Below are positions 29 through 54,448 of a DNA stretch of 64,000 nt, one piece after another (the first letter of the stretch is position 1; every line of letters begins with the position of its first letter). The stretch is from Calditrichota bacterium. GTDB lineage: Bacteria; Electryoneota; RPQS01. The stretch spans positions 210,150 through 274,149 of the forward strand of contig JACJVZ010000003.1 of assembly GCA_020637445.1 (NCBI GenBank), given 5' to 3'. The notes under the pieces are model-generated. The model was not told the origin of the DNA, ran no database searches, and saw nothing but the letters and a program-made list of their open reading frames with translations. The position numbers and the translations under genes are program-made.

Positions 29-69
29 AGAAAAAAGAGCGGGGCACCTGCAGCAGGTGCCGCCGCGAG
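29..69 (-). terminator. Intrinsic terminator of the ankyrin gene, formed by copy 1 of palindromic repeat family 1
   Basis: Core cggggcacctgcagcaggtgccgccgcg (40-67) forms a 7-bp GC-rich stem; on the minus strand it is followed by a T6 tract (complement of aaaaaag at 30-36), about 50 nt after the stop at 112. Confidence 0.6.
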
Positions 70-111: not shown

Positions 112-657
112 CTATTCTTTCGCGCCGTGTGCTTTGAGCATTTCGGCGAACTCGTAGTTCTTTTTGTATTGTGCGACGCGCATGGGCGTCCACTTGTTCT
201 CATTGACGAAATTGACGTCGGCTCCGGCGGCGATGAGAGCCTTTGCGGCTGCAAAATTGTCACGCAGAGCCGACAAACAGAGCGGCGTCATTTGGTTATT
301 GTCCATCAGATAGAGAAATGCACCGTGATCGACTAACATTCTCACGGTCATGCTGTCACCCCCCATCGCCGCGTTGTGAATGGGAGCAAATCCGTCGTCG
401 TTGACGGCGTTGACTTCCGCACCCTTCGTCAGCAACATCTGGACTATTTCGTTGTGTGCGCCGTTGGCGGCCCAATGCAAAGCCGTGTAGCCGTGGTCAC
501 AAACGTCGTTGACGTTGGAACCGTTTTCGAGAAACCACTTCACGGCTTCCATGTTGCCGTTTTTTGCGGCTTCGCAGATATTCGGTTCAGTCGGATGAAT
601 TGCGGCGGCAACGGCCACCATTCCAAGCACACTCAAAAGGACGTAACGGATCATCAT
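112..657 (-). CDS. Ankyrin-repeat protein with N-terminal signal peptide
   Basis: 181-aa ORF; hydrophobic N-terminus (MMIRYVLLSVLGMVAVAAA) followed by ankyrin-like ~33-aa repeats (GYTALHWAANGAHNEIVQMLLTKGAEVNAVNDDGFAPIHNAA...). Confidence 0.8.
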   Translation of the reverse strand: MMIRYVLLSVLGMVAVAAAIHPTEPNICEAAKNGNMEAVKWFLENGSNVNDVCDHGYTALHWAANGAHNEIVQMLLTKGAEVNAVNDDGFAPIHNAAMGGDSMTVRMLVDHGAFLYLMDNNQMTPLCLSALRDNFAAAKALIAAGADVNFVNENKWTPMRVAQYKKNYEFAEMLKAHGAKE

Positions 658-7777: not shown

Positions 7778-9772
7778 TCAGCGAATGTACAGCAGTCTTT
7801 GGGTTTGACTGCGGGAGTGATCGGACAAGCGAACAAAATACAATCCGGACGCCAGTCCCTTTGCCTCCCACGACAGGGAATGTTCTCCGGCGGGGAGTTT
7901 CGAATGACTCAGCAGCACGGCGACCTCGCGTCCCGTGACGTCATAGACCCGCAGTGAGACGTCGGACTCGTGATCGAGACCGAACCGCAAGCGTGTGACG
8001 TTGTTGAAGGGATTGGGATAGGCGGGATAGAGCGCAAATTCGGACGGCAAGGCGGGAGCGTCGTCGGCATCGAGTACGACGGCCAGCACATCAAAAGTCA
8101 AGACCGTATCGGGACACGAATTAGTGTGCAGCTTGAGTTCGCCGAAGAAATCGTAGTTTCCGCTGTCGTTGGTGTCGGCCTCGAGAATGACTTGAGCGAC
8201 AAGCGTGCTTCCCGGTGCCAGTCGTCCAAAGGGAGGTTCGACACGAAGCCAGTCATCAGGCGGAATTTCGGTCAGGGGTTCGAAGGAATAGACCAGATCG
8301 CCGCTGCCGGAATTTGAAAATCTCAGGTCGGCGGCGCCCTGTCCATGATTGGGGCCGACGACGTTGATCGAGGAGTAGCTGACGGCGAGATTGGGGACGC
8401 CGGCAGTGATATCGGCTTGAGTATTCTGGTTGGCGAAGACCTCAATACCGTGAACAGTGTCGCCGGCGAAACACGGTCCGCCCGAGAACATCGTGTAAAC
8501 TCCGGGCGGCAGAGCGAGGGCAAACCGTCCGACCGTATCTGAAACGGCATATTGCGGCAGTTCAGCGGCCTGCACGCGCACTCCGGCAACAGGTTCGTTG
8601 GTGACACGATTATGAACGACGCCAGAGATACCCGACGGCGGACTAATCCGCCACATCAGCATGTTATCATGTCCGGAGGTGTTGGCTCTTCCGCAGGCGA
8701 CAAAACCACCGTCGGAGATACGAACCAAATCTTCGAAAGCCCGGCCCAATTCCGTGTCTGTCCAGGTCCAACTTGTGTCCCCGTTGGTCGTCGTCGCCAC
8801 AAGCCACAACCTGCCGGAATTTACACTGGCGCCGGTTTGTCCGGCGAACAGGGTTCCGCCTTCAAGATAGGGAGCGACACCGGTAAATTTCTCGCTGCCA
8901 CGTCCGTCGGTATAGGTTCGTTGCCAAAGTGTTTCTCCCGCGGAATTGAGACGCATGGTGAAAGCATCGCGCAGAGAACCGGAACGGGATTCCCCCGTGA
9001 CAACGACGTCCCCGCTAACGGAATCCACGGTCGCCGCGAAAACCTGCTCGTAGTCTGAATCACCGTATGTCCGTTCACTGATAAAATTGCCGTCGCTGTC
9101 CGTAATCACGATATAGAAATCAAAGTGACGACTGGTGTCGGGATCGCTGGTCGTGCCGACGAGCAGGAGGTTTCCATTGGGCACACGTACGATCTCGTTG
9201 GGCCAATCAGGATTTGATGTGCCAAATGTCCTTGAATAGAGCGAATCGCCATTCGAGTCACAGCGCATCAGGTAGAAATCGAGCGATCCTCCGGGGCCGG
9301 TTCGTCTACCAGCTACATAAAACCCGCCGTCCTGATTGGGCAACAGCGCGGCCGCTTGGTCGGAGCCAGACCAGAAAAACTCCCTTGACCAGACGAAATC
9401 ACCTTGCTGTGAATAGCATACGACCAGTGAGTTTAGGCTTGAATCATGGCCGCACGCCACCAGATTGCCATTTGTAAGCACATCAACGTCAAATAGTTGC
9501 TGAACTGAATTGGGAACTCCGAAAATGCGGGACCAAAGAGTGTCACCAAGCGGATCGTAGCGCACGATGATTGCATCGTCAGAGTTGCCTGCGAACACAG
9601 AGCCAACCGCTACGAACCCGCCGGTGCTAAGCTCAATACAGGAATTTAGTGAAGAGGCGGATCCAAGATCGTAGATACTGGTCCATAGGGTGTCCACCTG
9701 CGCGGAGGCACGAGTCGTCAGACCTGACAAAAGAAGCAGCGCAAGGGCGAGAGTGAATGGCTTGAAACTCAT
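7778..9772 (-). CDS. Secreted beta-propeller-repeat protein with T9SS C-terminal sorting domain (paralog 3 of 3)
   Basis: 664 aa; signal peptide; same domain order as the two downstream paralogs; CTD AYPNPFNNVTRL...GLYFVRLSD...RLLYIR. Confidence 0.8.
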   Translation of the reverse strand: MSFKPFTLALALLLLSGLTTRASAQVDTLWTSIYDLGSASSLNSCIELSTGGFVAVGSVFAGNSDDAIIVRYDPLGDTLWSRIFGVPNSVQQLFDVDVLTNGNLVACGHDSSLNSLVVCYSQQGDFVWSREFFWSGSDQAAALLPNQDGGFYVAGRRTGPGGSLDFYLMRCDSNGDSLYSRTFGTSNPDWPNEIVRVPNGNLLLVGTTSDPDTSRHFDFYIVITDSDGNFISERTYGDSDYEQVFAATVDSVSGDVVVTGESRSGSLRDAFTMRLNSAGETLWQRTYTDGRGSEKFTGVAPYLEGGTLFAGQTGASVNSGRLWLVATTTNGDTSWTWTDTELGRAFEDLVRISDGGFVACGRANTSGHDNMLMWRISPPSGISGVVHNRVTNEPVAGVRVQAAELPQYAVSDTVGRFALALPPGVYTMFSGGPCFAGDTVHGIEVFANQNTQADITAGVPNLAVSYSSINVVGPNHGQGAADLRFSNSGSGDLVYSFEPLTEIPPDDWLRVEPPFGRLAPGSTLVAQVILEADTNDSGNYDFFGELKLHTNSCPDTVLTFDVLAVVLDADDAPALPSEFALYPAYPNPFNNVTRLRFGLDHESDVSLRVYDVTGREVAVLLSHSKLPAGEHSLSWEAKGLASGLYFVRLSDHSRSQTQRLLYIR

Positions 9773-10008
9773 GGAAACTAAAGATATAACAATTGGTTAG
9801 CTGTGCTCGAAGGCAGTTCTTGTAAACTATTAATATACCATAGTCTCATGGCCTCTTCAAGTTCCTCTTGGAAGATTGAGCAATTAAGTGGTGGTTACGG
9901 TGCCCAGCCGAGAATTGTGTTTGCCGGACCTCGCTGGCTCTTGAGAGTTGTTTTCTTTTAGTTTATATTTACGTTTTAGGAAAAAAGTCAGAGTTTCGGG
10001 AGTTGACC

Positions 10009-19976: not shown

Positions 19977-19983
19977 ATTCCGG

Positions 19984-20026
19984 ATTCCGGCGGGGAACCG
20001 CTGCGCTAAATCCCCGCTCGGCGAAT
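19984..20026 (+). repeat. Conserved motif family 2, copy A
   Basis: gattccggcggggaaccgctgcgctaaatccccgctcggcgaa; 6-bp stem cgggga/tccccg around the conserved loop accgctgcgct. Confidence 0.6.
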
Positions 20027-23781: not shown

Positions 23782-23845
23782 ACTCACCGGGCGTTTCTAC
23801 CCCCCTTGCCTCCCCCGGAGGACCGGAGGGGAATCGGAAAGTACC

Positions 23846-39330: not shown

Positions 39331-39379
39331 TAACAGAAACGCGCCTGTCCCCCCTCGGACAGGCGCGTTGTTCTTTATG
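39331..39379. terminator. Bidirectional intrinsic terminator candidate between hsp20 and the metallophosphoesterase gene
   Basis: 11-bp perfect stem cgcgcctgtcc/ggacaggcgcg (39340-39350 / 39357-39367), loop cccctc, T-rich on both transcript orientations. Confidence 0.55.
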
Positions 39380-39422
39380 TCAACCTCTCCCCCGCTGGGA
39401 TAGAGGATTGTTGTCTTGGGGC

Positions 39423-39442
39423 GGGCGGATTGCCATCCGCCC
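39423..39442 (-). other. GC-rich hairpin downstream of hsp20
   Basis: gggcggat-tgcc-atccgccc, perfect 8-bp stem with 4-nt loop. Confidence 0.5.
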
Positions 39443-39471
39443 CTACACAGATTCGCCAAGAGCACAGAGTG

Positions 39472-39499
39472 CGGGGCACCCGCAGCGGGTGCCGCCGCG
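39472..39499. repeat. Palindromic repeat family 1, copy 2 (downstream of hsp20)
   Basis: cggggcacccgcagcgggtgccgccgcg; 26/28 identical to copy 1, and the two differences (t->c, a->g) are base-pairing partners in the stem. Confidence 0.7.
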
Positions 39500-39507
39500 T
39501 TAGTGAG

Positions 39508-39957
39508 TTACTTGGAAACCTTGATCGTGCGGCTCTTGGCCTCTTCGGCCTTGGGGAGCGTGACCTTCAGGACGCCGTCGCTGTAGTTGGCGGAAACGCG
39601 GTCGCCTGTGATGTTGTTCGGCAGGCTGAAACTGCGTTCGAACTTGCCGTAGCTGCGCTCGACGCGGACGAAGTTGTCCTTTTCTTCCTTGATTTCGCGC
39701 TTTTTTTCACCCGAAATGGTAAGGACATTGTTGTTCAGGGTAATGTTGATGTCCTCTTCGCGCATGCCGGGAAGTTCGGCATGAATTTCATAGCTGTCGG
39801 GATTTTCGGCGATATCGACATCGGGGGCCCAGCTTCGCATGATGCCGCCCTTGTTCCAGCCCATCAGTTCATTCAGGGCTTCATCCAGATTGCCTACGGG
39901 GAAACCCGGTTGCATGTGACGGGGAACGTACTTCGTGATCTTCATGGTGATCTCCAT
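39508..39957 (-). CDS. Hsp20/alpha-crystallin family small heat-shock protein
   Basis: Alpha-crystallin domain (APDVDIAENPDSYEIHAELPGMREEDINIT...GVLKVTLPK); alternative start at second ATG (39945), which has a GGAG-like SD. Confidence 0.9.
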   Translation of the reverse strand: MEITMKITKYVPRHMQPGFPVGNLDEALNELMGWNKGGIMRSWAPDVDIAENPDSYEIHAELPGMREEDINITLNNNVLTISGEKKREIKEEKDNFVRVERSYGKFERSFSLPNNITGDRVSANYSDGVLKVTLPKAEEAKSRTIKVSK

Positions 39958-40191
39958 ATCTTTGGTTTGTTGTAGAAAGGGTAAAGAGTTCTGCAGTCAT
40001 TGTGACACTGACCCTTAAGGCAACGGAAATGCCAATTGTGTAAAAAATTGTTTTACAAACAGATAGCGAGAATTTGAAATTTTCTGCATCTGCAACGGTG
40101 GCAGAGTGGGCTGTTAATCCGACAGGTATTATGTCGCATTGGCAGGCAGATGACAGGAGAGATTCAGAAGCCCCCCTTTATCCCCCATTTC

Positions 40192-40219
40192 TCGCGGTGG
40201 CATCTGCTGCGGGTGCCCC
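40192..40219. repeat. Palindromic repeat family 1, copy 3 (inverted, degenerate)
   Basis: cgcggtggcatctgctgcgggtgcccca is 24/28 identical to the reverse complement of copy 1; the stem is kept on the plus-strand transcript only through G-U pairs. Confidence 0.55.
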
Positions 40220-40390
40220 ATACCGAGTCATTTATCGGATTGCGGCGGGAAACCGCTCGCGAAATTCCCACTTGGTGAACAAGACGGAAATGGGGGGAGA
40301 CCGGAGGTTGCATATTCGCCTTTGAGTGGGTATCTTTTTAGATTCCAAGCTCCTTGCGAGTTTCAACCGCTAACTTTGCCCCTGCCACCA

Positions 40391-49025: not shown

Positions 49026-50114
49026 ATGAAGAAGCTGATTTTAGTATTGGTCGTGGCCGGACTGGTTTCCAGCGCCACAGCAACGATTCGGACGGTGAGT
49101 CAGTTTGGGACAGCAGATTACACATCTGTTTCATCGGCGGTCAGTGCAAGCTCAACGGGCGACACGATTCTGGTATCGCCGGGATCTTACAACGACGCTA
49201 TCACCATCACATTTCGGACGATTACCATCATCGGCGCGGGTTGGGACGCGACTCAGATTTCGCCTTCAAGCGGAGCAGCGCTTACCCTGAGTACCAGTTC
49301 CAATGGATCAGTTCTTGAGGGAATGGCGATAGTGGCAAATACGACCGTGCTAAACACCGGAGGCAACACCGACTCGGTGACTATTCGGAGGTGCACAATG
49401 CAGACACCTCAGAATTTTGGATATTCATTGACCAACTGCCGGAGGATATATTTTGAGGATTGTGTCTTGACGTCCACTGCCAACAGCACAATGTTCAATG
49501 TTTCAGTTCAGACCAACTCAACGCTGACGCTGCGGGGCTGCATACTTGGATTCAACGGAACGTCAGCAAGTTCTTCTGTTTACTTTAGTGGAAACAACGG
49601 CAGTCCGGTCGAGATTACGAATTGTACATTCGTCAATTGCCGTCAGATTTTCAATTTGAGTGGGGCGCAGCCAGTTGTGGCGATCAACAATGTCCTTTAC
49701 GATTGGACGGGTGGCGTAAGTTGGGGATCCTATCTTGCGGGAAGCGTATTTGACTATAATGCATCGGATGCCACAGGTCCGGCGATTCCGGGTGACTTCA
49801 CGAATCATGTTTCACTTGGAGCAAACGATCCGTTCGTGAACTATGACGAGTCGCTAAATTATCAGCACGGAGTTAGTGATTTACACTTGAATGGCGGCAC
49901 GGGTGGATTATTGCTTACGGACGCAGGCAATCCTCTGATTTTTGATGTAGACGCGTCACAATCAGACGTGGGCGCCTATGGCGGCCCGAAGCCGCTGGTG
50001 GACAACGGAGTTCCGTCGTATCCGTTCGTGATCTCGCTTGATGTGCCGAACTTACTTGAGTCCGGCGACGATCTAAATGTATCTTCGACAGGCCGAGTCG
50101 GACCACGATATTAA
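49026..50114 (+). CDS. Secreted right-handed parallel beta-helix repeat protein
   Basis: Signal peptide MKKLILVLVVAGLVSSATA; repeated short beta-helix rungs rich in N-x-[ST]; no T9SS CTD. Confidence 0.7.
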   Translation: MKKLILVLVVAGLVSSATATIRTVSQFGTADYTSVSSAVSASSTGDTILVSPGSYNDAITITFRTITIIGAGWDATQISPSSGAALTLSTSSNGSVLEGMAIVANTTVLNTGGNTDSVTIRRCTMQTPQNFGYSLTNCRRIYFEDCVLTSTANSTMFNVSVQTNSTLTLRGCILGFNGTSASSSVYFSGNNGSPVEITNCTFVNCRQIFNLSGAQPVVAINNVLYDWTGGVSWGSYLAGSVFDYNASDATGPAIPGDFTNHVSLGANDPFVNYDESLNYQHGVSDLHLNGGTGGLLLTDAGNPLIFDVDASQSDVGAYGGPKPLVDNGVPSYPFVISLDVPNLLESGDDLNVSSTGRVGPRY

Positions 50115-54384: not shown

Positions 54385-54448
54385 CCAGCCAGCATAGACG
54401 CTGGACTCAATGCGCTTCGCGGGCGCTTGGGTTTATTGAACAAGAAAA

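Follow-up and report, generated by a model that had tools for sequence, protein, structure and literature searches.

The window, by which the whole 64,000-nt stretch of DNA analysed is meant, was ordinary chromosome encoding RecQ, TypA, a lysine transaminase and many type-IX-secretion cargo proteins; proteins identical to its own carry the NCBI name Calditrichota bacterium. Near its left end, an ankyrin-repeat gene (nt 112..657, minus strand; Pfam Ank_2, 1.8e-28) was followed, 44 nt past its stop codon, by a palindrome designated copy 1 (nt 40-67; part 38..69, core 41-67, hairpin 39-66; minus strand, cggggcacctgcagcaggtgccgccgcg), which lay 35 nt ahead of the next gene on the same strand, encoding a 3-hydroxyacyl-CoA dehydrogenase (start codon at nt 3-5). 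Two other copies were located on either side of an HSP20 gene (nt 39508..39957, minus strand; Pfam HSP20, 6e-28): copy 2 on the 3′ side at nt 39472-39499 (part 39470..39501, core 39473-39499; minus strand, cggggcacccgcagcgggtgccgccgcg), and the degenerate, inverted copy 3 on the 5′ side at nt 40192-40219 (part 40191..40222, core 40193-40219; plus strand, reverse complement ggggcacccgcagcagatgccaccgcga). Copy 2 lay 8 nt past the HSP20 stop codon, within the HSP20 3′UTR; copy 3 was situated in a 433-nt divergent region upstream of HSP20, between that gene and the 40322/40391 membrane-protein gene. Alignment with relatives placed copy 3 in a composite repeat block at nt 40170..40307 (boundaries approximate, no strand assigned), which also contained a module designated family X and the short inverted repeats TCTCCCCCCATTTC and GAGAAATGGGGGA, by which it was bounded.

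Other repeats were observed in the same region. Family X (GGATTCCGGCGGGGAACCGC...AAATCCCCGCTCGGCG) occurred alone or beside the hairpin repeat, at nt 19977-20024 and 40223-40278 of the window and elsewhere in L126 (2041-2092), L192 (~9640-9700) and the spacer between the ankyrin and 3-hydroxyacyl-CoA dehydrogenase genes of L201, and a related motif, CAACCCGGCCGGAAT, recurred near copies in loci of metagenome Ga0268298. A second palindromic family, GGGGCGGATKGCMATCCGCCC, was present at nt 39421-39447, 25 nt downstream of copy 2, as a tandem pair just left of the window (L001 12406-12471) and once in a relative (L141 238-255). In several cases, short metagenome contigs of this species stop within this second family or right behind it, which suggests that it breaks assemblies. 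Three further stretches of the window (nt 23800-23841, 49950-50025 and 54389-54437) were 76-92% identical to several places in Ga0268298, and are probably more repeat families or conserved gene ends.

The element strand reading 5′-CGCGGCGGCACC... was defined as the T strand. On it, the cores read CGCGGCGGCACCTGCTGCAGGTGCCCC in copy 1 (nt 41-67, minus), CGCGGCGGCACCCGCTGCGGGTGCCCC in copy 2 (nt 39473-39499, minus) and CGCGGTGGCATCTGCTGCGGGTGCCCC in copy 3 (nt 40193-40219, plus), and they scored 51.6, 53.7 and 41.7 bits, respectively, in the covariance model. The three palindromes of the sequence-only reading were found as described. A search with a 24-nt consensus, allowing up to 3 mismatches, returned exactly these 3 sites in the window, versus 0.00 expected from 100 dinucleotide-preserving shuffles, which excludes an origin by chance. 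A fourth copy, CGCGGCGGCATCCGCCTCGGATGCTCC, was found about 4.3 kb past the left edge of the window (L001 14897-14923), 7 nt 3′ of the stop codon of a Big_1-domain gene, giving a modest density of 4 copies in about 84 kb here, compared with roughly 1 per 60 kb in the Ga0268298 contigs. The sequence of copy 1 was identical in 10 strain-level contigs, and all four copies were unchanged across every strain-level contig recovered. A possible half-copy that had been tentatively placed at nt 9898-9920 had to be dropped from the family, having no match to a 33-nt consensus at up to 10 mismatches and no match to the covariance model run with filters off, in which the best window match after the real copies scored 12.7 bits (E=1.5) and lay away from this position.

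Each unit was predicted to fold into a hairpin whose 8-bp stem closes a loop of 3 nt, with a bulged C and three or four further pairs on the outer side; a transcribed copy would form a hairpin of about -20 to -30 kcal/mol (-23.1 kcal/mol with a z score of -4.3 for copy 1). The compensatory change proposed earlier between copies 1 and 2 was borne out: the only two positions at which they differ pair with each other in the stem, as U-A in copy 1 and as C-G in copy 2. In copy 3, the full 8-bp stem was formed on the plus strand only, with two G-U pairs (-19.0 kcal/mol), and was broken on the minus strand; the observation that this copy keeps its stem on one strand through G-U pairs thus stands, but as an argument on its own it is too weak, consisting of two transitions, and A-C mismatches occur on the same strand in other copies.

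For a search beyond the window, a pattern was used that fits all four copies and permits transitions at the variable stem positions. In the JGI metagenomes, it gave 68 matches, approximately 42 of which had all eight inner pairs intact, were carried by contigs of 49-60% GC and had unrelated flanks, while the remaining matches were mispaired and lay within genes of high-GC organisms, as expected of chance. The fully paired matches came mostly from Ga0268298 (at least 21 on 15 contigs), Ga0154020 and Ga0138256. One of the Ga0268298 loci, L159, was syntenic with nt 23-33 kb of the window at about 73% nucleotide identity, and the hosts of the other copies are therefore relatives of the window organism. 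The unit could be written as 5′-CGCGGCGGCAYCYGC-NNN-GCRGRTGCCCC(G)-3′, 27-31 nt in length; its edges were sharp, similarity stopping 1-4 nt outside the 27-nt core, and it was near-identical even between genomes in which the genes retain about 73% nucleotide identity. An exact copy-1 variant was also observed about 5 nt past the stop codon of a type-IX cargo gene on a contig of 66% GC (L138 3123-3149), from which the family may reach beyond close relatives. In L129 (2354-10161), five full or divergent copies were seen within 8 kb among genes of unknown type; a Pfam scan of this locus showed mostly unknown proteins, one weak phage-capsid match and no transposase. No copy was found in viral contigs (IMG/VR), plasmids or phages. 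No Rfam match in the window reached the gathering score, and at E up to 1 none scored on the copies themselves; the sole match overlapping a copy, ylbH-leader at nt 32-114 (17.3 bits versus a gathering score of 50, E 0.099), was taken as chance.

With only three copies in the window, two of them flanking one gene, the similarity could be attributed to chance or to recent local duplication of a single terminator of the window. The probability of this is close to nil and the explanation was rejected, as the shuffles yielded no such sites, the flanks of the copies were unrelated, about 40 more copies occurred at unrelated loci in other genomes, and the fourth copy lay outside the window.

Pairing was maintained throughout the family. 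In the first alignment (A2), of 39 copies, 96.4% of the cells were paired, compared with 31-60% in slid controls (28-60% across alignments), and pairs 11-21 and 13-19 switched between C-G and U-A in 12 cells; the covariation score was reached by none of 500 shuffles. The covariance model recovered copies missed by the search pattern, and in the enlarged alignment (A6) 94.2% of the cells were paired and four pairs were changed on both sides, including C-G to G-C flips at pairs 12-20 and 4-27, with that at 4-27 carried by only two weak model matches (21.7 and 24.4 bits). Covariation, suspected at first from a single pair, thus extends to four stem pairs, and the variants retain the 8+3-bp stem by changes on both sides of the pairs. 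Matches below about 33 bits are regarded only as probable relatives, because unrelated sequences at loci L017-L116, chosen for shared flanks and hence not an independent control, reach 18-32 bits in the model. The copies derive from a few master variants, so that independent substitution events are few, and much of the invariance seen in the core is imposed by the search pattern, which fixed many core positions. On the reference strand, G-U wobbles and A-C mismatches, which would distinguish folding as RNA from folding as DNA, numbered 5 versus 3, a difference that was not significant.

Orthologous sites were compared for evidence of turnover. A spacer that measures 62 nt and holds no copy in the window was longer by about 130 bases at the L159 locus, and a copy lay within this added stretch. 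Around HSP20, four related genomes with 83-95% identical HSP20 and preserved synteny were available: copy 2 was missing at the orthologous site in all four; copy 3 had an intact orthologue only in the closest relative (L192/L193, 50.3 bits) and was not found at the orthologous sites of L194, L196 and L198; and no other copy was seen in the approximately 160 kb of these loci. L196 and L198, the more distant relatives, had none of the composite block at nt 40170..40307, and in L192 this block was larger. As the ankyrin protein itself had no homologue at E <= 1e-30, orthologous loci of copy 1 were reached through the neighbouring AlkD-like protein. In L200 (7330-7385; AlkD 84% identical), the orthologue of copy 1 kept the left arm and the T-tract, while its loop and right arm were longer by about 16 bases; it still folds (-23.5 kcal/mol) and is missed by the covariance model. 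A different repeat module occupied the place of copy 1 in L201, and a plain, unrelated terminator in L202. No clean pair of empty and filled sites with defined junctions or a target duplication was found among the sites compared, the filled sites differing by messy replacements. The filled, empty and decayed orthologous sites of relatives point to an element that is acquired, lost and eroded over the time in which species diverge.

The positions of the copies relative to genes were determined with a codon-usage log-likelihood gene caller trained on long ORFs. The intergenic location foreseen for the family was borne out, 35 of 39 copies being intergenic versus 12.1% expected (p ~4e-28). Sixteen of these 35 lay within 15 nt of a stop codon, versus 7.8% of intergenic positions expected (p ~2e-9), and 25 within 45 nt, versus 19.4% (p ~4e-11). 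Published REPs are 20-40 bp long; most lie downstream of ORFs, in many cases at a distance below 20 bp, and occasional copies are intragenic (PMC3733652). The distribution of the copies matches that of published REP families. Intragenic units were observed as well, the 27-nt unit being equal to 9 codons: one lay in-frame in a type-IX secretion C-terminal sorting domain (L140 5404-5430, GAPAAGAAA), another in-frame in a HAD hydrolase alongside another repeat (L141 552-578, AAASAADAP), and in L184 (1831-2013) three 78-nt tandem units were in-frame in a phage-region ORF beside a Mu-like portal gene. With some 40 further copies, unrelated flanks, intergenic enrichment and covariation, the earlier description of a REP-like intergenic family with hairpin-preserving substitutions is upheld.

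This location raises the alternative that the hairpins act in RNA, as functional elements at the 3′-ends of mRNAs such as terminators, stabilisers or sites for RNA-binding proteins, maintained by selection gene by gene and not as mobile DNA. The strong enrichment just past stop codons and the stable folds agree with such a role, as do one-sided changes that give G-U pairs on the transcribed strand (copy 3, copy 4, L173 and L129_2354), and stabilisation of mRNA by REPs has been reported, as has an effect on translation when they lie within 15 nt of an ORF (PMC6006769, PMC12306157). However, the T strand occurred in both orientations relative to the upstream gene (17 sense versus 9 reverse, not significant), although asymmetric features of the unit (5′ CGC and the bulged C) are conserved; copy 3 and L178 lay in divergent promoter regions; some copies were in-frame within ORFs; and selection on structure only would not preserve 27 identical bases across genera.

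Copy 1 was directly followed on the coding strand of the ankyrin gene by a T-rich tract (TCTTTTTTCT, nt 29..38, minus strand), and a terminator scan flagged the arrangement (site 61..43); copy 1 with its U-tract plausibly terminates transcription, and the same arrangement of hairpin and T-tract, also kept in L200, speaks for the RNA-element explanation. Copies 2 and 3 had no T-tract, as noted before. In the family, a U-rich tail followed only 3-4 of 26 copies, which counts against that explanation. The HSP20 gene had an intrinsic terminator of its own at nt 39331..39368 (minus strand; 12-bp stem plus UUUCUGUU; -32.4 kcal/mol, z -5.1), kept in five genomes about 140 nt past the stop codon with compensatory changes in the stem. 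Copy 2 follows the HSP20 stop codon and precedes this terminator by about 100 nt, and is therefore an insertion in the 3′UTR and not the terminator; its position upstream of a conserved terminator, together with its lack at four orthologous loci, likewise counts against the RNA-element explanation. A weak match of nt 39331-39368 to the Rfam Atu_C9 terminator end (25 bits, short of the gathering score) lay on the plus strand, the terminator itself being on the minus strand, and was taken as generic terminator similarity. The proposal that copy 1 serves as the terminator of the ankyrin gene thus remains in force for this copy, but it does not extend to the family, most members of which lack a U-tract. 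With 3-4 U-rich tails in 26 copies and copy 2 lying ahead of the conserved HSP20 terminator, the family as a whole was rejected as intrinsic terminators; termination is an occasional use of the element and not its defining role. On both sides of the evidence, the RNA-element explanation appears unlikely.

The copies also showed a strand asymmetry. After removal of the coding-strand effect, estimated from loci with genes on both strands, 22 of the 25 copies whose flanks were usable had the T strand (CGCGG...) on the C-rich strand (p 1.6e-4), as did 15 of 16 loci (p 5e-4); the exceptions were copy 3, L159_6437 and L129_2354. This bias is confounded in that most of the sampled copies follow genes which are themselves on the C-rich strand. 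In the window, the G-rich strand carried 32 of 47 genes, as expected of the leading strand, and the C-rich strand is presumed to be the lagging strand. An orientation set by replication is not cleanly separable from a sense orientation combined with a preference for lagging-strand genes; in the neighbourhoods of leading-strand genes, five copies obeyed the replication rule and two the gene rule. Under both readings, the asymmetry is linked to replication. It hints at a replication-linked mechanism acting on single-stranded DNA. Y1 enzymes act on hairpins in the single-stranded DNA of the lagging-strand template (PMC6006769, PMC3333891), and an asymmetry of this kind is what such fork-coupled enzymes produce, but it is not proof.

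Correlation of orientation with the GC-skew strand, together with conservation of sequence as well as structure across genomes, would also be compatible with a palindrome that is bound as double-stranded DNA by a chromosome-organising or polar-motif protein (gyrase-like or IHF-like binding, as at BIMEs, or a replication-oriented motif) and is kept by selection for that role; for REPs, binding of gyrase, Pol I and IHF is known (PMC6006769). The compensatory changes, however, maintain pairing, which is of relevance to a folded single strand and not to a duplex. Moreover, the density of copies was low and variable between close relatives, presence or absence differed at orthologous sites, and the copies were nearly confined to the first few tens of bases past stop codons. 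A role as a duplex protein-binding site is thus considered highly unlikely.

These findings make it fairly probable that the palindromes are REP-like elements, that is, short dispersed DNA hairpins of an uncultured Calditrichota lineage, the unit being copied by a trans-acting enzyme that recognises the folded single strand. RAYT enzymes of the Y1/HUH type recognise GTAG REPs in this way, and SsnA nucleases recognise CGTC repeats in single-stranded form and cleave them. In this mechanism, the enzyme would copy the unit to new sites, probably on single-stranded DNA at the replication fork, and the copies would persist where insertion is tolerated, as in 3′UTRs. Once transcribed, a copy would form a hairpin that could serve as a terminator if a U-tract follows, as for copy 1; one that has no U-tract would be a 3′UTR stem-loop that may slow exonucleases and, when within 15 nt of the stop codon, may affect translation termination. 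No RAYT or other Y1 enzyme was detected near any copy in the window plus about 750 kb of sampled loci by a weak test consisting of tblastn with an E. coli RAYT sequence, regular expressions for the HUH and Y motifs, and precomputed Pfam labels; a similarly weak test by regular expression found no GIY-YIG motif in six-frame translations of the sampled loci. A more specific version, in which an enzyme that is neither RAYT nor SsnA mobilises or uses the family, acting on single-stranded DNA with replication polarity and a preference for the 3′-ends of lagging-strand (head-on) genes, is a speculative proposal that we consider rather unlikely. If true, it would add a third type of partnership between hairpin repeats and an enzyme, in the little-studied Calditrichota.

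Hairpin repeats of the REP type influence the ends of mRNAs, the rearrangement of genomes and the quality of assemblies. Their characterisation has centred on Proteobacteria, and RAYT and SsnA are the two partner enzymes known for them. The present data document a REP-like population without a tag in the Calditrichota, which as a phylum are known almost exclusively through metagenomes, with clear covariation, turnover at orthologous sites and a marked strand asymmetry. The family, made up of repeats that standard annotation ignores, offers a defined substrate for finding the enzyme that recognises it. Within the REP field, this is an expected kind of finding and no surprise.

For REPs with a GTAG tag, as in E. 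coli and Pseudomonas, the partner is RAYT (TnpA_REP), a Y1/HUH transposase (PF01797). Canonical REPs have a GT[AG]G guide that precedes the foot of the hairpin by 0-2 nt, occur mostly as inverted doublets and are associated with a cognate, single-copy RAYT gene flanked by REPs (PMC3333891, PMC6006769). Like the repeats of the REP/RAYT system, the Calditrichota element is a GC-rich, imperfect palindrome in the range of 20-40 nt that contains a small bulge, and it has many dispersed, extragenic copies with unrelated flanks, mostly just downstream of ORFs. Also in common are subfamilies set apart by compensatory changes in the stem, intragenic copies in occasional cases, gain and loss that are specific to lineages, and a strand asymmetry that would be compatible with an enzyme acting on single-stranded DNA at the fork. 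The element differs in having no GTAG or GTGG at the foot, where CGCGGC precedes the hairpin on one strand and a weakly conserved N-T-T/G-C on the other. Unlike REP, REPIN and BIME arrangements, the copies are singletons, the nearest pairs being 130-950 nt apart and mostly in direct orientation, and their density is lower than that of the REPs of E. coli or Pseudomonas. With canonical tags, doublets and an identified transposase all absent, REP-like is the right level of claim.

CGTC REPs and Ssn-related motifs are known from Neisseria and alpha-Proteobacteria, and have also been reported in Chlorobi and Bacteroidetes. These repeats (NTS/dRS3) carry a CGTC, TGTC or CCTC tag, an 8-9-bp stem with A-T at the first two positions, a loop of 4-5 nt and a CCA tail (PMC3733652), and they pair with SsnA single-strand nucleases of the GIY-YIG type (cd10448), the ssnA gene being flanked by repeats (PMC11893778). 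In common with them, the element is a hairpin of about 30 nt with non-palindromic, oriented flanks, and CGTC REPs are present in the FCB group. They reach hundreds of dispersed copies in some genomes, and their partner enzyme acts on a single strand. Here, by contrast, CGCGGC is found at the 5′ side, the stem starts with G-C, G-C, the loop is of 3 nt and a CCA tail is lacking (G-A-A-(C) at best).

Several other classes were compared. The element resembles Rho-independent terminators in being a GC-rich hairpin at gene 3′-ends, with a U-tract in copy 1, but most copies have no U-tract and the sequence is common to unrelated genes. As with Rickettsia palindromic elements (RPE), some copies are in-frame inside ORFs; RPE, however, are about 100-150 bp, versus a 27-nt unit with only about 4 of 39 copies intragenic. 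A MITE (50-500 bp, with terminal inverted repeats and target-site duplication) was rejected, since similarity ends 1-4 nt past the 27-nt core and there are no duplications. A CRISPR repeat was rejected because the copies are isolated, the only tandem case (L184, 78-nt period) lying in an ORF and having repeated "spacers", and a DNA uptake sequence because the element is not within genes at the expected density; attC was likewise considered and rejected. Untagged REP-like stem-loop families have been described from M. tuberculosis, D. radiodurans, Bordetella, Brucella and cyanobacteria, and are listed as awaiting study (PMC3733652). Like these, the element is a dispersed palindrome that has neither a conserved terminal tag nor a known dedicated enzyme, although it differs from those listed in sequence and in phylum, none being described from Calditrichota in the library covered by the search. 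It is among these untagged REP-like stem-loop families that the element fits best, as a new family belonging to a known kind and not as a new kind of system.
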